From: Deltaproteobacteria bacterium
GTDB lineage: Bacteria > UBA10199 > SPLOWO2-01-44-7
NCBI GenBank assembly: GCA_023265595.1
Contig: JAHFSU010000002.1
Location: 21,105-85,104 of the forward strand
Reading direction: 5' to 3'
DNA length: 64,000 bases
Part shown: one piece after another, positions 10,006 to 45,161 of the stretch
Layout: each line of letters begins with the position of its first letter
Numbering within the stretch: position 1 is the stretch's first letter
Notes under the pieces: generated by a model
Told to the model about the DNA's origin: nothing
What the model saw: only the letters and a program-made list of their open reading frames with translations
Databases searched by the model: none
Position numbers and translations under genes: made by a program

Positions 10006-10077
10006 GGTCAAATTTGCGTCACCCACAATCGTCAAAATTTTGACGATTTAGGGGACGTTCCACCAAAATTTTGACGC
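10006..10077. promoter_or_regulatory. Cluster of three related palindromic sites (core TCAAAATTTTGACG; 10030-10045 is a perfect 16-bp palindrome CGTCAAAATTTTGACG) in the receiver/kinase intergenic region
   Basis: Seen directly. Sites at ~10007 (degenerate), 10030-10045 (perfect) and 10063-10076 (one arm imperfect). They lie 150-200 bp upstream of the kinase start at 9883 and just 3' of the receiver gene. Confidence 0.4.
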
Positions 10078-16418: not shown

Positions 16419-16475
16419 TAGAGTTATCGGCAGATTTCAGAAAAAGTTGCCTATAAATGCTTGCATTCCTTATTT

Positions 16476-35817: not shown

Positions 35818-38052
35818 TTAATGATCATAATTAATTATCGGGTTCAAGGGGAATTTTTCCTCTGCCAGCTCTGCTTCTATTTCCTCGGCAATACGTTGCT
35901 TTTCCAATGCAAGGAAGAAATCATCTGCACGGTGAACTTTTTGACTTTGCCTCGTTACGAAGGACCTAAGTTCATCAACGATAATCTTTAAGTATATTTC
36001 TATTTCTTTTCTTTTATCCTTTATCCCCATCCAACTCACAATAAACTTTAATTGATGTATTCTCTCCCCCGGGTGAATATTCACAATATGTGGAAACTGG
36101 CGGGCGGCAGTCGCCGCCTTCATCTGAATATCCAATGGGAGTTCAATACGCCGATCTTCCGAATCAAATCCGGGAAGGAGTTCCGAAATATGAAAATTGG
36201 CTGTCTTTGCCGCAAGGTGATCATCAGCCATGGCCTTTAAAATAGCCTCTTTTTCTTCTTCTAAAAAAGGGCTCTCAGTATGCGACAATCGCATCTTGAA
36301 ATATTCCTTCAAAATATAAGCGCTAAAGAGATAAGCACCCCGCTCCGCAAGAATAGACGAGCGATTCCCGGCTGGAAAAAACCCGCTCAAATTTTTGTAT
36401 CCATCCATGTTGTGAAAGATCTCATGAGCCAAAATCTGCAATCTTTCGTAAAAAGGTTTCAAAAAACCATTTTGAGGATTGGCGTACTCGACTTCTATAT
36501 TTTTAAAAAGCGCTCTCGCAAAGCCGGCCGCACCTTCTATTTTCAGCGTCGAATCCAGCGCCACCGTATCCACCGATTGAACCGCCAAATCATAAACAGG
36601 AACACCTCGGTAAGCAATTTCTTTTAAAACATCCAATTCACTTTCCAAAGGATTGTCGGAGCGGGGGTAGGCTTCGAACGGCACAACCAGACGTCCCTTT
36701 TTGAAGACATCGGCCCAATGAGCCGGCTCCGGCTTGGTCCAGAGAATATCATCGGGCAAAACTTTTTCGTGATAAAGATTTGCTGATTGGGCCAATAGAT
36801 CAGAGACGCCAAAAGGAATTTTGGCAGATTTAGCATCAAAAATATAATGGCCCATAAACATATTAAAGAAAAAATCATTCTGACATTGGTTCAGGGCGGA
36901 GCCGCCGCGTTCCAACTCCAACCGGATCGATTCAGAAATAGCGCTCAAAAAATCATTGCGGACTTTGTAGTTGTCGAGACGGCTCTCGGTTTCAAAGGCT
37001 CGTCGCGCAGCAACAAAAGGCTTTTTAATCTTATCCAACAGATCGGGGGTCCATTTATCTTTGTAGGCTTGTTGGAACATCGAAATAAGGGAATCGATCA
37101 TTGCAATTTCACCTTGAGTTTGTGTGAATCCCCTCACCCCCAACTCCACAAAAAAAGCGTACGATTTCAAAAAGTGCTGAACCCTCTCTTCAGAATTTTG
37201 CGCATTCCTCCCTTCTAAAAAAAGATTTTTGGAAAATTCGATAAGTTCTGGATCGTTCAATTTGGGCAAAACCTCCAAATATTCCGGAGAAAGGCCGCGC
37301 GCCATCAGGGCCGTTTTGTATTCTTCCCGATATTTTTGATGATATTCCCTTGCAACCTTTACGATCTCTTCTTCAGAAAATCGCGACCGGAAATATTGGT
37401 TCACTACGAGACCGTTTTTCCAATCTCCATCGTCAAAAAGCAAAACTTCTCCATCAAAACTTTTCAAAAACTGCAGGGTATTAGAATGACCCATTTCAAA
37501 CATTTCTTGCAGAGAAGGATTCTCTTTTTCTATGCGGTAGATCAAACCACGGGATTGGGAATTGAGATCGGGGGCCGCCAAAATAGAGAGCCGCCTGATT
37601 TCGGGCCGATCGGCTTGGGCCAGATATTCGGGATTTTCAAATGCGATTCGCTCAATAGCTTTGAGCCAATTTTTGAGAGATAAAAAGGCCGTCAAATCAG
37701 CGACAGGGGCCTCGTGCGATTTTTCATCATAACGAAAGACCCTTGCCTCCAGCTCTTTCAGATGGATCAACAATTCCGGAATACTTAAATTGCGGACTTG
37801 CGCCTCAAAGGCCTCGGCAGTGGCATAAAGCTGCGGGTATTTTACGGCAGGAGAATCCGGATGGATGAGATCGACAACGGAGCGGAAGGTATCGATATCT
37901 TTTTTGGCGTCATTGACTTTAGGTTGATGGGCAGTCGGATCCGGATCGGTCTTTTCTAAGGCTAAAGCGATTTGTTTTTCACAAAACGCTCTCGCTTTTT
38001 TACCGGATATTTCAAAAGGCATAAACAATGGCCCCCAAATAGTTATCGGCAC
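35818..38052 (-). CDS. Large hypothetical protein with a single HExxH motif (ILAHEIFHNMDGY…AERGAY); putative gluzincin-type metallopeptidase
   Basis: 744 aa with a GTG start. No signal peptide. An HExxH with a Glu ~20 aa downstream is the only recognisable feature. Confidence 0.5.
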   Translation of the reverse strand: MPITIWGPLFMPFEISGKKARAFCEKQIALALEKTDPDPTAHQPKVNDAKKDIDTFRSVVDLIHPDSPAVKYPQLYATAEAFEAQVRNLSIPELLIHLKELEARVFRYDEKSHEAPVADLTAFLSLKNWLKAIERIAFENPEYLAQADRPEIRRLSILAAPDLNSQSRGLIYRIEKENPSLQEMFEMGHSNTLQFLKSFDGEVLLFDDGDWKNGLVVNQYFRSRFSEEEIVKVAREYHQKYREEYKTALMARGLSPEYLEVLPKLNDPELIEFSKNLFLEGRNAQNSEERVQHFLKSYAFFVELGVRGFTQTQGEIAMIDSLISMFQQAYKDKWTPDLLDKIKKPFVAARRAFETESRLDNYKVRNDFLSAISESIRLELERGGSALNQCQNDFFFNMFMGHYIFDAKSAKIPFGVSDLLAQSANLYHEKVLPDDILWTKPEPAHWADVFKKGRLVVPFEAYPRSDNPLESELDVLKEIAYRGVPVYDLAVQSVDTVALDSTLKIEGAAGFARALFKNIEVEYANPQNGFLKPFYERLQILAHEIFHNMDGYKNLSGFFPAGNRSSILAERGAYLFSAYILKEYFKMRLSHTESPFLEEEKEAILKAMADDHLAAKTANFHISELLPGFDSEDRRIELPLDIQMKAATAARQFPHIVNIHPGERIHQLKFIVSWMGIKDKRKEIEIYLKIIVDELRSFVTRQSQKVHRADDFFLALEKQRIAEEIEAELAEEKFPLNPIINYDH

Positions 38053-38116
38053 TAAGGGGGCCGAAGTTGCGTGCCACCATTTCCAGAATCCGTCACTTAA
38101 ATTTTTCTTACTTTTT

Positions 38117-38165: not shown

Positions 38166-38369
38166 CTACATTTCCAACCCGGCTTGTTTTAAAATGGATT
38201 TCAAAAGGCAGGGTCCGATAATTTTTTCACTATGGACAGGAACAGTAACCTTTCGTCCTGTTGCGGGATTTACAAAATGTTGATGGGAACCCATGGAATC
38301 ATAAAGATTAGCGGTAGATTTCTTTTCGATGCCCCACTTTTTCAATCGTGACGGTTTGAGAGGCATCAT
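38166..38369 (-). CDS. hicA: HicA-family toxin homologue (orphan; no hicB found)
   Basis: …SMGSHQHFVNPATGRKVTVPVHSEKIIGPCLLKSILKQAGL matches the HicA consensus (GSHh.F.hP…VtVP.H…gTLksIlKQAGL). Its N-terminus overlaps the 3' end of the RelE-like gene by ~60 nt in another frame. There is no room for hicB downstream. Confidence 0.5.
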   Translation of the reverse strand: MMPLKPSRLKKWGIEKKSTANLYDSMGSHQHFVNPATGRKVTVPVHSEKIIGPCLLKSILKQAGLEM

Positions 38370-38565
38370 CGATAAGATAAACAACACGATAATCACCCTG
38401 TCTGACACGCCAATATGCGTCCCCTTTCAATTTTTCTGCACCTGGCGGTCTTGGATCAAGGGTTAACTGACGGATTTTCATCACCAGTCGTTTTCGATCT
38501 TCTTTGGGGATTGGTTTGAAATCCTTTTCAGCACTTCTCTTGATGATAAGATTATAAGAGGCCAT
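38308..38565 (-). CDS. RelE/ParE-family type II toxin
   Basis: 85 aa with the C-terminal RelE-like block …YRVVYLIDDASQTVTIEKVGHRKEIY. Overlaps the upstream antitoxin by 14 nt. Confidence 0.7.
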   Translation of the reverse strand: MASYNLIIKRSAEKDFKPIPKEDRKRLVMKIRQLTLDPRPPGAEKLKGDAYWRVRQGDYRVVYLIDDASQTVTIEKVGHRKEIYR

Positions 38566-38782
38566 CTTTTTTCATCTGCCCGACAAAGGCCTCGAAGTCG
38601 CGTGTTTTTTCCTCTTTGCGAAGACGGATCGCTTCCAAATCAATGGCATCCTCACGAAGTGCCGCACGAACCGCCTCGTTGACAACTTCAGAAATGGAGC
38701 TGTCATTTTGCACCGCTTTCAACTTTAAAGCTTTATGAAGCTCCGGCTCCAAATAAACCGTAGCTCGCTTGGGATCGCCCAT
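38552..38782 (-). CDS. Ribbon-helix-helix (CopG/ParD-like) antitoxin
   Basis: 76 aa. N-terminal TVYLEPELHKALKLKAVQNDSSISEVVNEAVRAAL is an RHH β-α-α pattern. A palindromic ATAACGTTAT lies in its promoter (38808-38817). Confidence 0.6.
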   Translation of the reverse strand: MGDPKRATVYLEPELHKALKLKAVQNDSSISEVVNEAVRAALREDAIDLEAIRLRKEEKTRDFEAFVGQMKKDGLL

Positions 38783-38843
38783 AAAACCTCCTCATCGTTA
38801 AAGCATCATAACGTTATGACGTTAAAATGTCAAACGTGAAATG

Positions 38844-38925
38844 TGCTCCCGGCAGGATTTGAACCTGCAACCCTTTCGGGACGGCGTTCTAAGCGCCGCG
38901 CGTATGCCAATTCCGCCACAGGAGC
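38844..38925 (-). tRNA. tRNA-Leu (anticodon TAG), type II with a long variable arm
   Basis: Manual fold of the reverse complement. Acceptor GCTCCTG/CGGGAGC + A. Anticodon stem CGGCG/CGCCG with loop CTTAGAA. Variable arm CCCGAAAGGG. T-arm GCAGG-TTCAAAT-CCTGC. 82 nt. Confidence 0.85.
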
Positions 38926-38932
38926 AATCTCG

Positions 38933-40300
38933 CTATTCACCCAACGCCTCGAACGCCAGCGCGGCGCCCTTGATGCCGCCGTAAAAATTGCTTAAACGGA
39001 TTTTTTCGTTGGGGGAATGGTAATTGTCATCGGGAAGACCCAATCCCACCAAAATCATCGGCACTTTAAGGGCCTCCTGAAAAGAGGCGACGACCGGAAT
39101 GGAGGCCCCTTCCCGTTTGAAGACGATTTTTTTGCCAAAACCTTTTTCATAAGCGGCGGCCACCCGTTTCAAAAAGGGATGGTCCCGGTCGACATAAGCG
39201 GGAGGTGTTGCGGAATGAAGATGCACTGCAACCGACACCCCTTGCGGCAGAATCGCTTTTACGTAATTTTCAAACTTCTCCGCGATTTTTTTCGGATTTT
39301 GATTGGCCACCAAACGCATGCTGATTTTCGCGCGGACCTCGGCCGGAATGATCGTTTTGGCGCCGATGCCGGTATAGCCCCCCCAGATGCCGCAAATATC
39401 AAGGGTCGGGCGCGTCCAGTTATGTTCCAAAGGGGTAAACCCCTTCTCGCTCATTAACGTTGCCGCACCGATTTCTGCAGCGGTCTTTTTTGCATCGAAC
39501 GGGGCTTTTGCTATTTCATTTTTTTCCGCCGCCGTGAGAGGCAAAACATCATCATAAAAGCCGGGAATCAGCACTTTTTCATTCTCATCTTTGAGTCTTC
39601 CCAAAACCCAGCTCAATGCCTGTGCCGGATTGCGCACCATCCCTCCATACAAACCGGAGTGGAGATCCTGCGTAAATCCCTTGACCATAATTTCAAAATA
39701 GACAAGCCCTTTAAGCGAATACGAAACGGCCGGCGTTTCGGAATTGAGCCATGGCATGTCGGAGAGCATTACCGCATCGCATTTCAAAAAATCGGCGTGT
39801 TCTTCAACATATTTTGAAATGCCGTCGGAGCCGACCTCTTCTTCCCCTTCCAAAATCACCTTTATATTGATCGGCAATTTTCCGACCGTTTTCAAAAAGG
39901 CTTCAGTCGCAAAAAGAAAAGAGGAATATTGGGCTTTGTCGTCGGTGGCGCCGCGCGCGTAAAGATTACCGTCGCGCACGGTCGGTTCAAACGGAGGAGA
40001 GGCCCATTGATCAAGCGGGTCGGGGGGCTGCACGTCATAATGCCCGTAGATAAGAATCGTCGGCGCACCGGCGGCATGGAGCCAGTCGCCATAGACCAGA
40101 GGGTTTCCATCGATTTGCAACAGTCTGCAATTTTCCAAACCGATTGTTTTGAAATGATGCAACTCATAATCGGCCGCCTTCAACACCTCTCCCTTTTTGT
40201 CGGGTTGAGTGGAAATCGAAGGGATGCGAATCACCTTTTTAACTTCCTCCAAAAAATATTCCCGGTTTTTTTCAATGTATTCTAATATTCGGGATTCCAT
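38933..40300 (-). CDS. M20-family metallo-dipeptidase (ArgE/DapE/PepV superfamily)
   Basis: …YGHYDVQPPDPLDQW…ARGATDDKAQ… are the M20 metal-binding motifs. ~455 aa from the MESRIL start. Confidence 0.8.
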   Translation of the reverse strand: MESRILEYIEKNREYFLEEVKKVIRIPSISTQPDKKGEVLKAADYELHHFKTIGLENCRLLQIDGNPLVYGDWLHAAGAPTILIYGHYDVQPPDPLDQWASPPFEPTVRDGNLYARGATDDKAQYSSFLFATEAFLKTVGKLPINIKVILEGEEEVGSDGISKYVEEHADFLKCDAVMLSDMPWLNSETPAVSYSLKGLVYFEIMVKGFTQDLHSGLYGGMVRNPAQALSWVLGRLKDENEKVLIPGFYDDVLPLTAAEKNEIAKAPFDAKKTAAEIGAATLMSEKGFTPLEHNWTRPTLDICGIWGGYTGIGAKTIIPAEVRAKISMRLVANQNPKKIAEKFENYVKAILPQGVSVAVHLHSATPPAYVDRDHPFLKRVAAAYEKGFGKKIVFKREGASIPVVASFQEALKVPMILVGLGLPDDNYHSPNEKIRLSNFYGGIKGAALAFEALGE

Positions 40301-40311
40301 GAAGCCTCCAT

Positions 40312-40716
40312 TCAAACTAAAACAGTTTGGGCCCAAGAAGTAAATCGTTCCACTTTTTTTGCAAAATCATGGGCGGCGTCTTGCGTAAAACGACGGGGCT
40401 CATATTCAACAAGATTTTTCAAGTTGATAATTTCGATCAGCCGGTCTGCATTTCTTTTTGCTTCCGTCGAGGAAAGGGCTTGCAATAAAAGGTGGGCACA
40501 GTCCTGATGGGCTTTTCCGGAACTCCGTTTTCCCAGATACAATGTGGTAATGGCATCATTAAAACTAATACAAGCATGAATGCCATTAAGAAGAACAGCA
40601 TCCCATTCCCCGTCTTGCAGGCATATCAGCATCACATCAAAGAATTGTTTTCCTTTGTCCTGATAGTTTTTATATTCGTTTTTTTGGATGCTCTTCGTCG
40701 AAATTTGTTTTACCAT
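40312..40716 (-). CDS. HEPN-domain protein (putative toxin of a HEPN/MNT pair)
   Basis: 134 aa. R-x5-H motif (GKRSSGKAH). Overlaps the upstream MNT gene by 47 nt. Confidence 0.6.
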   Translation of the reverse strand: MVKQISTKSIQKNEYKNYQDKGKQFFDVMLICLQDGEWDAVLLNGIHACISFNDAITTLYLGKRSSGKAHQDCAHLLLQALSSTEAKRNADRLIEIINLKNLVEYEPRRFTQDAAHDFAKKVERFTSWAQTVLV

Positions 40717-41329
40717 CCGTGATAATCTCCGTCAGCATCTTTCCGTAAATGACTTTGCCCTCTTTCGCGATGTTGATAATTAAAGGATCTTTGGATTGCA
40801 ATCTCTTTAAAAAATCACCCGCATGCAGTGATTTGATATTCACAAAATTGCCGTAATAGCGGACAAAATCTTGAGCCATAGAATCGAATAGAGATTCATC
40901 TGTAGGCAAAGGATATTGATCCGCATACAGAAGAAGACAATCGAGATCGCTGGAAGCTGTTTCTTCCCCCCTTGCCGTACTGCCGAATAAAATAACGGAA
41001 ACAGGCTGTGGTTTTAGTTGTACAGCCAATTTGTCTCCTAAATCCGACAAAAGACCTCTTTCAAATGCAAGAAGAGGAAAAACCGCTTTTTGTACAAAAA
41101 TATGGTCTCGATTCAACTCGTAAAGGTGCGCTTTTCCCACTACTTTTTCAAAAAGAATGCCCTGCGTAACCAACTCTCTTAAAACATGACTCATTTTAAA
41201 GGTTGATGTTTTAGCCATAATGGCCAGTTGACGTCCTGTTACGCCCATGTTTTTCCCTGATAGAATTTTAAAAACGCGAATAAATATAGGGTCTCCCAAA
41301 AGTCGTTCAAGATGATTTGTTATATACAT
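40670..41329 (-). CDS. Minimal nucleotidyltransferase (MNT) with an N-terminal winged-HTH; putative antitoxin/regulator of the HEPN/MNT pair
   Basis: GSTARGEETASSDLDCLLL is the GSxARG…SDxD pol-β NTase signature. The N-terminal ~70 aa are HTH-like (ILSGKNMGVTGRQLAIMAKTS…). Confidence 0.75.
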   Translation of the reverse strand: MYITNHLERLLGDPIFIRVFKILSGKNMGVTGRQLAIMAKTSTFKMSHVLRELVTQGILFEKVVGKAHLYELNRDHIFVQKAVFPLLAFERGLLSDLGDKLAVQLKPQPVSVILFGSTARGEETASSDLDCLLLYADQYPLPTDESLFDSMAQDFVRYYGNFVNIKSLHAGDFLKRLQSKDPLIINIAKEGKVIYGKMLTEIITDGKTNFDEEHPKKRI

Positions 41330-41334
41330 ATCGC

Positions 41335-41358
41335 ATATGTTATATTAATATAACATAT
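41335..41358. promoter_or_regulatory. Perfect 24-bp palindrome ATATGTTATATTAATATAACATAT in the divergent promoter region between the MNT/HEPN operon and the giant AAA+ gene
   Basis: Seen directly. The reverse complement is identical. It sits 6 nt from the MNT start codon and ~130 nt from the AAA+ gene start. Confidence 0.5.
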
Positions 41359-41489
41359 ATTATTTTGCAATCTTATAATTACCCCCTCCTCACTTTAATT
41401 TTTGAGCAAGCAACTTTGGGGGGCCCTTCCGCCGATAACTTTATTGGATAGGGGTGGTGTACTATACGGGGAGAGAAGGGATAAAAATT

Positions 41490-44400
41490 ATGGGTGATGC
41501 AAAAATAAAAAACGATTCCCTTTTTAATGAGGGAATTCTTCCTCCTTCTAAAGACGTAGACCGCACCTGTATCGATTACGAAACCATCGAAGAGGTACCG
41601 GTGATTGAAGTAGAAGGTGGCCTTGAAATAGATAAAGATAATTTTGAAGATGTTCGTCGTGTCTGGCTGGGTTATGAAGATGGGAAACCTTCCGTAAAAT
41701 ATTATGAGCCGGGTGAAGGGGAGAGGGCAATACAAGAATCGTTGGACAAACTAAAGCAAGAGGGGAAAGATCCGGAAAATTCTCCCGGCCCCCACCATAT
41801 GTCCGGTTTTCCGGCAGATCAAAAGGGGAACCTTCTTATCCAAATGCTCCAACAAAAAACGTGTCGATATACGGCAAGAGAAAAGGATGAGGAGGCTTCT
41901 TTATATAGGGAGAAAGATGTTCGTAAAAAGCAACACCATAAACTGGGCCGTGCGGAAAAGCCTGATAAAAACGGAAAATTTAAAATCTATTTCTATAAAG
42001 AGAGCCCCAAGCTGGATGTCCCTTGCCAAACCATGGGATTCGTCCCCTTAACGGAAGTTAGAGGGCGGGCCGATATCATTCGCCTCATTAAAGCCGGTGA
42101 GTTGGTACCGGGTACCGATTACTGTATCGGCGGAATCGAAAAAAATCCGAGACTCCTGTTTAATCCAACTCGTGTAGAAGGCTATGTCGATCCTATCGTT
42201 ATCCCTAATATTCTTAAATCGGGTCTCTTTTCAAACGAGATGGAAAAAAGGGTCAAAGCCGACATTGAACGAGCAACAAATACAGAGAGAGAATCTATTT
42301 TGCGGCAGAAAGAATCAGCCGATTTACAAAAACATCAGGTTGAATCACAGCCGTGGTTAATGAGTATTAACACATTCGTAGCCTCTCTGATTGGTGTTGG
42401 CCCCATGTTATGGATCTCCAGAAGACAGATGCAAATGATGAGGGAACAGTTGGGACTTCAAAAAGAACAGATGGGAATTATCCGGGAACAGATGGAAGGG
42501 GGAAAGAAGGAGCCTATTCTCCCTAAACTCAGAGATATAACGCAAGAAGCAAGAGAAGGAAAAATCAAACCGGTCTCGCCAAGACTGTGGCCTGCCATCA
42601 AACAACTTGCCATTAATTTGAGCAAAGGAAAATTGGCAAACCCGACCTTGCTCGCGGAAAATGGAGTTGGCAAATCGGCCGCTGTTGAAGGTTTAGCCTT
42701 GGCTATTGTCAACGGCATTCTTCCTGATGGAACACCCTTACCGGATCATTTGAAAGGAAAAAGAATTTTAGAGGTAAGCGCCGGAGAACAGTTTTCAGCC
42801 ACCAAGGGAGGAGAATATCGCGGAGTCATGGAGGCCAAATTCAGGCAGTTCTTGGAAGAGGTCAAAGCCGCCAAAGATGTCATCCCCTTTATTGATGAAG
42901 TTCATGAATTGGCCAAAGCGGGACAAACAGAGGGTTCAGCAGGTATTGCACAGATGTTCAAAGCAGGGACAGCCCGAACCAATGAGTTTCAATTTATCGG
43001 AGCAACAACCAACGAAGAATTTGCTAGACATTTTGCGGGGGACAAGGCGCTTCAAAGCCGTATGCCACCCGTTGAGGTAGCAACTCCGGATGCCAAAGGG
43101 GCCATAGCTGATCTACGGTTCACGCGCGAGGCCAATGAAGCCCACTACGGAAGAAAAATTCCGGACGCAACAATTGATGAAATAGTGAGACTTTCAGAAC
43201 CGGCCACTTATACCAACTTTCCTAGAAAGGCATTTGATCTGCTGGAAACCGTTGCCAAGCAGATGGATATTGAAGGAGACACAAGTGGCACCATTATACC
43301 GGAAAGAGTTCGGGCTTATGTTGAATGGAAAAGTCTGGATGCCGTAGCCAATGCCACTTCCGAAGCATGGCGTGAGGCGAATCGTCCCAAACTGTCTCTA
43401 CAAGAGATTCGTGTGATACAGGAAAGAAGTATCGGAGAGACTTTGCAAGTATTGGTTCGGGATGCAGAAAAATTGTCCGACCTTGTATTAGAAAAAATTG
43501 TTACTACCCTCACGAATTCATGGGAGGCTCTCAAACCCGAGGCAAGAGCCGGGCTCACTCCCCCCGGAACAGCCGATTTTGCCATTCCACAACGTTTTGT
43601 CGAAGTTTCGTTAAGCGGCATCAAAGATCATTTAGGCATCCAATTAATTCCTCAACCTGTCGTTCCAGCTCCGCCAATTATTTCAGGTGGTGGAGGGACG
43701 GGAGGCCCTGCCCCAACAGGAGGAACATCCGGCACCGGCGGCACACCGCCAACCGGAGGTGGAGCACCTACCGGAACCCCTTCGCCGGCAAACCCAACAT
43801 CTTCTCCGGCACCGGCTTCCGGAGCAACCGCTTCGGCAACGGCTAGAGTGATGGAGACAACAACGACCTCCCCTGAAGCTCAAGCTCTGAGAGCATTAGA
43901 AAAAAGTACCACCGCATTAGAGGTGATATTGGGTTCAAAAGTAATGCCCCATATTGATGTCCGCGTTCCGGTCGGATTGGCAGCAACGACAGGAACAGCT
44001 GCGGCCTTTCATATTGCAGATTATTTTGGTGTTCCTTCCTATCTGACAGGCAGTGCCGCCTTGGGAGCGCTTGCGTGGACTGTTCGCAGTAATCCGGTGG
44101 CAGGCGTTTGCACTGCCGTAGTTCATGCCGGATATTTTATGGCCGGTGCCTATCCTGCCACAGCGGGACTTGCCGACTTGCGAGGCGAGGAGAAACCGTC
44201 TCTCACAACACATCTGGTTGGTGATTTAGCAGGGGGTGTCTCGTGGACTATTATTAATAAAGCCAATGGTGGCGGCGGTCCCGAAAAAATGCTTATTGCC
44301 CAAGCTGAACAGGCCGTCATCGGTTTAAGAATGTATGGTAAAGAAATTGCGGCCGGAGCTTCTGCAACCGCCACAACAATGGCGGCCTATGCCAGAAATG

Positions 44401-44831
44401 CAGGGTCTGTGATGGCGGCAGGGGCACGTGCTTTGGCCAGTGAAGCTGTGGCAACCGAAGGGCTGATGACTGCCGGAGCCACGGTCGGAGGGATCATCGC
44501 TTTTGCGCCGTTTCTTATGGGAATGGCCGGAGAGGAAGATGTGGCTTTGATGCTTGCCGGTGATATCAAACATCGCGACTCCGAACTGAAAAAATTAATC
44601 CGTTGGGCTCTGAACAGCGATCAATTGGATATCGATTGGTATGGAGCCGAATTAGATCGCAATGGATTAAAGGGAACGAAGCACGACGACAGCCAAATCA
44701 TGAAAAACAATCGTCTGTTCATGAAGCACTTCACCGCGCTGGCGAGAGCAAAGGAAAATGGTGATGAAGAGGCCACCAACAAGGCCCGCGAAAATTTCGT
44801 AAAAACTTTTCCGGAATTGGCCAGAAAGTAG
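41490..44831 (+). CDS. Large (1113 aa) multidomain protein: unknown N-terminal domain (~290 aa) with a hydrophobic segment, coiled coil, a single ClpA/ClpB-D1-type AAA+ module, a Gly/Pro/Thr-rich disordered linker and a Gly/Ala-rich hydrophobic C-terminal domain (~330 aa)
   Basis: Start at the ATG 9 nt after GAGAAGGG. The AAA+ core aligns with ClpB D1: Walker A NGVGKSAAVEGLALAIVNG, Walker B VIPFIDEVHEL, sensor-1 FIGATT, Arg finger ALQSRM. The pre-AAA helix (LRDITQEAREGKIKPVSPR) also matches. There is no D2 or ClpB middle domain. The C-terminus (…GASATATTMAAYARNAGSVMAAGARALASEAVATEGLMTAGATVGGIIAFAPFLMGMAG…) looks like glycine-zipper membrane helices. Confidence 0.8.
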   Translation: MGDAKIKNDSLFNEGILPPSKDVDRTCIDYETIEEVPVIEVEGGLEIDKDNFEDVRRVWLGYEDGKPSVKYYEPGEGERAIQESLDKLKQEGKDPENSPGPHHMSGFPADQKGNLLIQMLQQKTCRYTAREKDEEASLYREKDVRKKQHHKLGRAEKPDKNGKFKIYFYKESPKLDVPCQTMGFVPLTEVRGRADIIRLIKAGELVPGTDYCIGGIEKNPRLLFNPTRVEGYVDPIVIPNILKSGLFSNEMEKRVKADIERATNTERESILRQKESADLQKHQVESQPWLMSINTFVASLIGVGPMLWISRRQMQMMREQLGLQKEQMGIIREQMEGGKKEPILPKLRDITQEAREGKIKPVSPRLWPAIKQLAINLSKGKLANPTLLAENGVGKSAAVEGLALAIVNGILPDGTPLPDHLKGKRILEVSAGEQFSATKGGEYRGVMEAKFRQFLEEVKAAKDVIPFIDEVHELAKAGQTEGSAGIAQMFKAGTARTNEFQFIGATTNEEFARHFAGDKALQSRMPPVEVATPDAKGAIADLRFTREANEAHYGRKIPDATIDEIVRLSEPATYTNFPRKAFDLLETVAKQMDIEGDTSGTIIPERVRAYVEWKSLDAVANATSEAWREANRPKLSLQEIRVIQERSIGETLQVLVRDAEKLSDLVLEKIVTTLTNSWEALKPEARAGLTPPGTADFAIPQRFVEVSLSGIKDHLGIQLIPQPVVPAPPIISGGGGTGGPAPTGGTSGTGGTPPTGGGAPTGTPSPANPTSSPAPASGATASATARVMETTTTSPEAQALRALEKSTTALEVILGSKVMPHIDVRVPVGLAATTGTAAAFHIADYFGVPSYLTGSAALGALAWTVRSNPVAGVCTAVVHAGYFMAGAYPATAGLADLRGEEKPSLTTHLVGDLAGGVSWTIINKANGGGGPEKMLIAQAEQAVIGLRMYGKEIAAGASATATTMAAYARNAGSVMAAGARALASEAVATEGLMTAGATVGGIIAFAPFLMGMAGEEDVALMLAGDIKHRDSELKKLIRWALNSDQLDIDWYGAELDRNGLKGTKHDDSQIMKNNRLFMKHFTALARAKENGDEEATNKARENFVKTFPELARK

Positions 44832-44837
44832 CGGCTG

Positions 44838-45161
44838 TCAAGCTACTGCTTTGAAAAGAAGTTTGATTTTTAGGACCTTGAGAATTTCTAAAAAACTGGA
44901 AAATTCGGGATTACCGTTCTTCGACAAGGCGCGATAAAGAGTCATCCGACTTAAATGAGTCCGTTTGGCAACCTCGCCCATGCCACCGGCCGCTTCGGCG
45001 ACATTGCGAAGGGCTTTGAGAATCATTTTTTCATCCCCTTCTTCTAACACAACATTAAGATATCCTGCTGCAAGTTCCGGATCCTGTAAATCTTTGATTA
45101 AATATTCATGACGGCTAACACTTCTTTTATCTTCTTTCATAACTTTTTCTCCGATTGCCAA
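44838..45161 (-). CDS. HigA-family 'addiction module antidote' HTH protein (TIGR02684-like), orphan
   Basis: 107 aa; …AAGYLNVVLEEGDEKMILKALRNVAEAAGGMGEVAKRTHLSRMTLYRALSKNGNPEFSSFLEILKVLKIKL matches this family along its length. No RelE/HigB-like killer gene is adjacent. Confidence 0.65.
   Translation of the reverse strand: MAIGEKVMKEDKRSVSRHEYLIKDLQDPELAAGYLNVVLEEGDEKMILKALRNVAEAAGGMGEVAKRTHLSRMTLYRALSKNGNPEFSSFLEILKVLKIKLLFKAVA

Follow-up and report, generated by a model that had tools for sequence, protein, structure and literature searches.

Probable autoregulatory operator at a perfect 24-bp palindrome in front of a winged-helix MNT/HEPN gene pair

What is a long, perfect palindrome doing immediately in front of the gene of a putative antitoxin, in a spacer shared with a large, divergently transcribed gene? 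We asked this of a 64,000-nucleotide stretch, hereafter the window, of contig JAHFSU010000002.1 (positions 21,105 to 85,104) from a Deltaproteobacteria bacterium. The palindrome stands in the intergenic region 41330-41489 (160 bp, given an AAA+ start at ATG 41490), between a minus-strand gene pair coding for a minimal nucleotidyltransferase (MNT) protein and its HEPN partner, and a plus-strand gene for an AAA+ protein. An earlier note on this DNA had proposed that the MNT protein, through an N-terminal winged helix-turn-helix (wHTH), represses its own operon from this site, and that the same site also controls the AAA+ gene. Our analysis suggests that the palindrome is probably the operator core of the wHTH-MNT/HEPN unit, to which an M20 peptidase gene has been added by insertion, and that the unit is autorepressed by its antitoxin; what binds there, where the promoter elements lie and in which direction regulation goes are what we infer. 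The site itself can be described as follows.

41335..41358, no strand: core dyad, ATAT-GTTATA-TTAA-TATAAC-ATAT, with half-sites h'1 (41349-41354) and h1 (41339-41344) of the proposed operator

The element, ATATGTTATATTAATATAACATAT, is identical to its own reverse complement over all 24 bp, and five bases (41330-41334) lie between it and ATG 41329 of the minus-strand MNT gene. No perfect palindrome in the window is longer: its arm is 12, the next arms being 11 and 8. Arm 12 was absent from 60 dinucleotide shuffles of the complete window and from 5000 of the 160-bp intergenic region alone; for the surrounding 71 nt (20% G+C), 10 shuffles in 20000 reached it. Because shuffles reach arm 12 never or rarely, the palindrome exceeds what A+T richness alone gives. 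The second-longest palindrome of the window, the perfect 22-bp AATCGTCAAAATTTTGACGATT, lies elsewhere, at 10027-10048.

The gene that begins next to the palindrome codes for a protein of two halves.

40670..41329, minus strand: wHTH-MNT gene, 219 aa, with wHTH 1-76, long helix 77-104 and minimal nucleotidyltransferase ~105-213

Pfam recognizes the nucleotidyltransferase domain (~105-197) through both Polbeta (34.5 bits) and NTP_transf_2 (30.1 bits), each over its cut-off. The G-S-x(9-10)-D-x-D motif is present, and G116, S117, S127, D128 and D130 do not vary among 37 members of the family. In an AlphaFold2 model based on the 37-member family alignment (predicted local distance difference test, pLDDT, 93.3; predicted template modelling score, pTM, 0.82), helices at 6-10, 14-24, 32-38 and 43-55 are followed by strands at 59-64 and 67-72, and on this helix-helix-helix-helix-strand-strand arrangement residues 1-76 are modelled as a winged helix-turn-helix. 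By sequence, the N-terminus gives a weak match to the ArsR/SmtB profile (E 6e-4, 19.6 bits vs. a cut-off of 55). Foldseek searches of the PDB matched the C-terminal half to the MntA/MNT antitoxins 7bxo, 6m6u, 7ae9 and 8xeo, as well as to HalB, and the N-terminal half to MarR, ArsR/SmtB/CzrA, TrmBL2 and RbkR.

While a word-based homologue search gave a single MNT relative, an exhaustive HMMER search revealed a family of 1662 representatives at E<=1e-3, of which 394 reach E<=1e-10. Among the 150 best, nearly all have a length of ~205 aa and an alignment that begins at residue 1-7. The family alignment shows Met1 to be nearly invariant. Since this alignment, the relative at 78% identity and the wHTH model all point to Met1, the true start of the MNT gene is 41329, and not Met28 of the public gene call P0001 (192 aa). 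No Shine-Dalgarno sequence stands ahead of ATG 41329.

The second gene of the pair overlaps the first.

40312..40716, minus strand: divergent HEPN gene, 134 aa, the proposed toxin, with R64-x5-H70 and conserved K100 and Y105

The HEPN and MNT frames overlap by 47 nt in the window and by 41 nt in L001, the locus of the closest relative, and the MNT-then-HEPN gene order recurs in nearly all of 27 related loci. The window HEPN protein has no Pfam match of its own, a profile search of the PDB gave no match, and its single-sequence structure model is poor (pLDDT 49). It aligns at full length with the partners adjoining MNT relatives, and 10 of 19 aligned partners match the Pfam HEPN family PF05168, with E-values down to 1.7e-10; the partner in L003, 46% identical to the window protein, reaches 29.2 bits against a 22-bit cut-off. 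The assignment of the window partner to HEPN follows from these matches of its homologues. Among the partners H70 is nearly invariant, and the Arg of R-x5-H is swapped for Lys or His in some. Besides R-x5-H they carry a nearly invariant K-N-x-V-E-Y at residues 100-105 (K100, Y105), whose Tyr could, solely on the analogy of HepT, be where AMPylation takes place. The MNT protein misses the NCBIfam MntA cut-off (NF047752; 29.8 vs. 60 bits), and we place the pair, by sequence, in a divergent wHTH-fused HEPN/MNT subfamily rather than with the MntA equivalog. The descriptive elements of the earlier note are borne out: an exact 24-bp palindrome, here shown to be beyond shuffle expectation, a winged HTH at the N-terminus of the MNT product, by model and structural matches, and an HEPN/MNT operon, by the MNT motif, the Pfam-matching partners and the overlapping gene pair.

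If the palindrome is an operator for its own gene, how well is it kept in relatives? In the searched collections the sole close MNT relative is P0002, which shares 78% identity and lies on L001, a contig of 1.66 kb; scans of genomes and metagenomes supplied four more at 40-42% identity, none of them closer than 42%, and many at ~30%. The close-clade comparison comprises the window and the four closest relatives, L001-L004, which span 40-78% identity. The earlier note had named absence of the palindrome from orthologous loci as grounds for dropping its reading; we find it present, and at the same place, in L001-L004. In all five close-clade loci the equally placed 24-mer parses on the coding strand as ATAT-GWTATW-TTAA-WATAWC-ATAT, with the following numbers of symmetric pairs out of 12.

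Window: 12
L002: 11
L004: 11
L001: 9
L003: 9

In L002, GATAT/ATATC replaces GTTAT/ATAAC on both arms, so that symmetry is kept, and more distant family members have different palindromes at the equivalent position. From these alignments, orthologous loci keep the putative operator site, and it changes along with the protein.

For the family at large, 58 non-redundant bacterial and archaeal loci were examined over the region -80..+6 about the start codon of the alignment, with the best inverted repeat of each region scored against 200 dinucleotide shuffles of that same region. Counts of loci with a repeat at p<=0.05 and of loci with CATATG were as follows.

Upstream region, -80..+6 (58 loci): repeat in 24, CATATG in 26
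Control, -260..-175 (54 loci): repeat in 5, CATATG in 1
Control inside the MNT gene (58 loci): repeat in 1, CATATG in 2
Control beyond HEPN (50 loci): repeat in 2, CATATG in 1

A first run of the upstream test had given 21 of 58 loci (binomial p = 2.6e-13), and in the shuffles of that run CATATG appeared in a mean of 2.4 loci and a maximum of 7. The repeats lie mostly 0-30 nt off the start codon and their sequences vary by lineage, which fits the expectation that each wHTH-MNT protein has its own site before its own gene. A dyad immediately upstream is, as judged from these sequences, a conserved trait of the wHTH-MNT family, just as an autoregulatory operator would predict.

The 24-mer also appears to be part of something larger, since two further, weaker half-sites extend its pattern leftwards over the MNT start codon. 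On the coding strand the blocks of the window read AATAAT-ATAT-GTTATA-TTAA-TATAAC-ATAT-GCGATA-TGTA-TATAAC, with a 10-bp period.

41319..41334, no strand: second, degenerate dyad, with half-sites h'2 (GCGATA, 41329-41334) and h2 (TATAAC, 41319-41324), in 10-bp register with the core dyad

The half-site h'2 takes in the A of the start codon, and h2 corresponds to codons 2-4 of the MNT gene. A direct repeat with 20-nt spacing (D3) and a 44-bp imperfect palindrome (I2, centred at 41336/41337) agree with this array, and a search with GTTATANNNNTATAAC found a second match, with 2 mismatches, at 41319-41334. Across the window the same search found no operator copies outside the locus, except for a 2-mismatch match at 38797 that is probably due to chance. 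The half-site register is the same in L001, L003 and L004, the last of which keeps four intact half-sites. From these patterns we conclude that the operator is probably an array of four half-sites (GTTATA/TATAAC) spanning 41319-41358, of which the palindrome is the best-kept pair.

The position of the array relative to a predicted promoter suggests how it could act.

41365..41370, minus strand: -35-like TTGCAA of the predicted MNT/HEPN promoter, 17 nt from a -10-like TAATAT at 41342-41347
41347-41355, minus strand: alternative extended -10, TGTTATATT, read from the sequence

Both -10 candidates fall within the palindrome, and at the equivalent -35 place L002, L004 and L001 have TTGACA, TTGACT and TTGTAT, respectively. 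Use of either candidate would put the transcription start 5-11 nt before the ATG, giving a nearly leaderless mRNA without a Shine-Dalgarno sequence. We hypothesize that a wHTH-MNT dimer, alone or complexed with HEPN, would set its two winged helices on the inverted GTTATA/TATAAC half-sites, whose centres are ~10-11 bp apart in the proposed contact, and that further copies may fill the weaker dyad at 41319-41334, in phase and on the same face of the DNA, possibly cooperatively and perhaps aided by HEPN-mediated oligomers. The site, once bound, would span the -10 region, the likely transcription start and the start codon of the nearly leaderless mRNA; occupancy would exclude RNA polymerase and leave the operon repressed, in negative autoregulation as in type II toxin-antitoxin systems. 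There is precedent in Shewanella oneidensis, whose MNT antitoxin, SO_3165, binds its own promoter, which has palindromes at -10 and -35, and represses it (PMC4621449). Comparison of loci and the wHTH fold lend good support to the putative autorepression put forward in the earlier note.

A role of the palindrome at the RNA level was considered and rejected. Transcribed, it would form a weak hairpin (-7 to -8 kcal/mol, z -0.9 to -2) with a single G-C pair and no terminator features, and a search of Rfam gave no family match in 41250-41560 and, at gathering score, two tRNAs only in the window. The weakness of this hairpin and its lack of an Rfam family favour a role at the level of DNA.

Several observations weigh against autorepression from this site, or at least against its details. 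The close clade supplied only four relatives. In L001, the 78% relative, the 24-mer is down to 9 of 12 pairs, yet a ATAACATATGTTAT dyad of the same half-sites, placed one half-site further upstream, is perfect; distant relatives, too, mostly have a single CATATG-centred palindrome of the ATAACATATGTTAT type (e.g. GTAAACATATGTTTAC, CGATACATATGTATCG and TGAGAACATATGTTCTCA), in some cases with additional flanking half-sites. L001 and the distant relatives favour this other dyad, so that one dimer may contact either pair of half-sites. The promoter hexamers are weak, with 8 of 12 positions matching consensus, which is under the scan threshold, and the scan lists neither on the minus strand. Finally, the palindrome holds a -10-like TGnTATATT on each strand, so its symmetry could be partly promoter-derived.

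Does the site serve the AAA+ gene as well? A shared bidirectional operator that also represses the AAA+ promoter, and thereby couples the module and the AAA+ gene functionally, has to be weighed against the following features.

41490..44831, plus strand: divergent AAA+ gene, 1113 aa, with a single ClpB-like AAA+ module at ~343-605; a neighbour, not part of the unit
41350..41379, plus strand: sigma-70-like ATAACA-18-TATAAT (10/12), facing the AAA+ gene, with a -35 that falls within the right palindrome arm
41410..41438, plus strand: sigma-28-like motif GCAACTTT-N13-GCCGATAA, facing the AAA+ gene, with a predicted start at ~41446; not part of the operator

The sigma-70-like match is the only feature able to give co-regulation, and the plus strand of the palindrome also carries TGTTATATT. 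Against this, sigma-70-like matches in the region are no commoner than in shuffles, and this one is not position-conserved in L001. The adjacency of the two units is itself not conserved. The AAA+ start at ATG 41490, which has a purine-rich ribosome-binding site (RBS), aligns with the start of the orthologue in L163, and only two AAA+ orthologues are recognizable: P0153 in L082 (34% identical) and a gene fragment in L163 (49% over the first 150 residues); tblastn of the AAA+ protein against all 163 loci likewise matched L082 and L163 only. In both, the same M20 peptidase gene (61% and 87% identical in L082 and L163, respectively) is transcribed away from the AAA+ gene, across spacers of 331 and 154 bp, with no MNT or HEPN gene between them. 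Conversely, L001 has MNT, HEPN and peptidase genes in a row, but the gene that diverges from them starts with a Gly-rich, unrelated sequence, and none of ~160 MNT-family loci encodes an AAA+ relative. As none of these loci has the two units side by side, their adjacency is particular to this genome, and the MNT/HEPN cassette (~40312-41385) is an insertion.

Moreover, the AAA+ gene has a conserved sigma-28-like motif of its own. The octamer GCCGATAA is exact at 41431-41438 and occurs 8 times in the window vs. 2.5 expected; it is the sigma-28 -10 consensus, located at -15..-8 (PMC12784957). Together with its upstream box it forms a bipartite motif, GCAACTTY-N12-14-GMCGATAACT, which is invariant in six aligned sites, including those of AAA+ loci without the cassette.

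Window 41410-41438, plus strand: before the 1113-aa AAA+ gene
Window 16424-16449, minus strand: before a large orphan gene
Window ~38043-38075, minus strand: before another large orphan gene
L163 ~495-530, minus strand: before the AAA+ orthologue
L082 1676-1710, plus strand: before the AAA+ orthologue
L001 ~251-290, minus strand: before the Gly-rich gene

Within the window the motif precedes three large orphan genes, coding for 525 aa, 734 aa and the AAA+ protein, and may be the mark of a small set of genes read by an alternative sigma factor. Blocks AGTTATCGGC and CAAAGTTGC, conserved between the window and L001, might be taken for part of the cassette, but they are this motif of the divergent gene, found also where there is no cassette and elsewhere in the window. 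The motif lies ~55 bp beyond the palindrome, and from the predicted start the palindrome would be at about -88 to -111, outside the polymerase footprint. Cumulatively, these findings make a shared operator improbable, and the coupling to the AAA+ gene that the earlier note had envisaged is not borne out.

The gene that the insertion did bring under the putative operator is more likely the one downstream.

38933..40300, minus strand: M20 peptidase gene, with a GGAGG RBS and ATG 40300, 11 nt after the HEPN stop (40312-40314)

The corresponding gap from HEPN stop to peptidase start is 22 nt in L001, and a simple consensus scan found no promoter-like or terminator-like site between the two genes. 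In L163 and L082 the peptidase has its own upstream region of 154 or 331 bp facing the AAA+ gene. Comparison of window 40300-41385 with L163:453-606 and L082:1411-1741 indicates that the insertion has cut the peptidase from this former upstream region. Judged from the layout only, the peptidase probably shares a transcript with the toxin-antitoxin operon and would then be under the operator; the cassette is more likely to have captured this downstream gene than the AAA+ gene. The peptidase/AAA+ spacer of L082 also contains, at 1470-1610, short repeats of CCAAGTTCCAAAT-like units with inverted copies such as TTGGAGCTTGGAAC, which are absent from the window.

A further possibility is that the symmetry belongs to the promoter core and needs no dedicated repressor, the palindrome consisting of back-to-back extended -10 elements with divergent transcription as a by-product. 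The occurrence of TGTTATATT on both strands inside the palindrome and the low G+C of its surroundings (20%) are what such an arrangement would look like. However, 24 bp of perfect symmetry exceeds the need of two hexamers, the change in L002 affects both arms and preserves symmetry, and a gene with a DNA-binding domain is conserved alongside the site. Furthermore, unlike -10 elements, palindromes at the same position in relatives contain G+C (TTCCTTACACGTGTAAGGAA, TGTTCGGTAAACCGAACA and CGATACATATGTATCG), and they include archaeal loci, where promoters use TATA boxes. We consider this explanation unlikely, even more so than a shared operator. A last possibility is that the palindrome serves recombination or insertion of the mobile cassette, as an end of attC or inverted-repeat kind, or that a host regulator unrelated to the module acts on the peptidase from it. 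The palindrome lies ~25-50 bp from where the cassette is inferred to end on the right, and its ATAAC/GTTAT is presumably loosely like integron core sites. But the other end of the cassette (HEPN stop, 11 nt, peptidase ATG) has no counterpart, no recombinase gene is nearby, and the dyad follows the MNT start codon through unrelated contexts in bacteria and archaea, so that we regard these origins as very improbable indeed.

The operator of an autorepressed wHTH-MNT/HEPN unit hence is the reading that we prefer, and the unit has company. The window is chromosomal, carrying genes for FtsZ, MurC, Lon and Tad secretion, and other toxin-antitoxin genes adjoin a tRNA-Leu in it. The relatives of its FtsZ, at 85-88% identity, belong to metagenome-assembled genomes of uncultured groundwater bacteria that bear the label 'Deltaproteobacteria bacterium'.

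38843-38925: tRNA-Leu
38806-38819: perfect 14-bp palindrome TCATAACGTTATGA, ~25 nt upstream of the ribbon-helix-helix (RHH) antitoxin gene
38552-38782: RHH antitoxin gene, paired with ParE
38308-38565: ParE gene
38166-38408, minus strand: open reading frame whose C-terminal 40 residues match HicA toxin (Pfam E 5.8e-13), overlapping the ParE gene
44838-45161, minus strand: HI1420-type 'addiction module antidote' HTH gene, directly after the AAA+ stop, with no obvious toxin partner noted

Of these, TCATAACGTTATGA is probably the RHH/ParE operator, and the HicA-like frame is probably the remnant of a third toxin-antitoxin module.

If our interpretation of the palindrome is correct, the fused winged helix gives a testable system for the coupling of the enzyme activity of a type VII antitoxin to transcription, and the locus exemplifies how a mobile toxin-antitoxin module can, by insertion, rewire a gene of its host, here the peptidase. 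One may speculate, as a long shot, that wHTH-MNT proteins are enzyme-repressors, widespread among bacteria and archaea, in which occupancy of the phased CATATG operator reports the state of HEPN (free, bound or AMPylated), with the peptidase, a housekeeping gene, and possibly the AAA+ gene, placed under such control by the cassette.

Considering known systems, the closest is HepT/MntA of Shewanella oneidensis (SO_3166/SO_3165; type VII; PMC4621449, PMC7641770), which has the same MNT-HEPN order and overlapping frames. Both share the GS...DxD motif and the MntA-like fold (7bxo, 6m6u) as well as R-x5-H in HEPN, and autorepression from a palindromic promoter, as by SO_3165, would be a further likeness. 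In contrast, SO_3165 is a minimal MNT without a recognizable DNA-binding domain, whereas the window MNT has an N-terminal winged HTH and a long helix; the window MNT is also under the NCBIfam MntA cut-off and the window HEPN too divergent for Pfam, and a growth-inhibiting HEPN RNase, neutralized through AMPylation by the MNT as in HepT/MntA, may apply to the window pair by analogy. Characterized antitoxins of HEPN/MNT systems, which are very abundant, have no DNA-binding domain (PMC7641770), and promoter regulation by them is unclear. In the searchable library available to us, which is not proof of absence, a literature search found no description of wHTH-MNT fusions.

The sigma-28-like motif in front of the AAA+ gene resembles sigma-28 (FliA) promoters in its exact -10 GCCGATAA (PMC12784957) and its repetition before several genes, and differs in its upstream box (GCAACTTT, not of TAAAG type), its spacer of 12-14 nt and its targets, which are large orphan proteins and not flagellar genes; no fliA gene is visible within the 64-kb window. 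The fold of residues 1-76 plus the long helix is like that of MarR and ArsR/SmtB repressors (7kfs, 3e6m, 1smt, 6cdb), which are dimeric and act on inverted repeats overlapping promoters. Unlike in these, the similarity is under every family cut-off and the C-terminal half is an MNT domain, and the window MNT protein shows no evidence of a ligand or metal site.

Finally, the predicted arrangement is like that of type II operators (MqsA/mqsRA palindromes, RHH/HTH antitoxins), with more than one dyad, a dyad over the predicted core promoter upstream of the antitoxin, and negative autoregulation likewise expected. Unlike in type II systems, the DNA-binding domain of the window protein is fused to a nucleotidyltransferase and not to a short toxin-binding peptide, and the half-sites, phased at 10 bp, extend over the start codon of a gene that is nearly leaderless. 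Autorepression via a palindromic operator is thus textbook and the site itself ordinary; less ordinary are the wHTH-fused MNT, the phased and often CATATG-centred operator, the nearly leaderless start, and the large family, both bacterial and archaeal, to which they belong.

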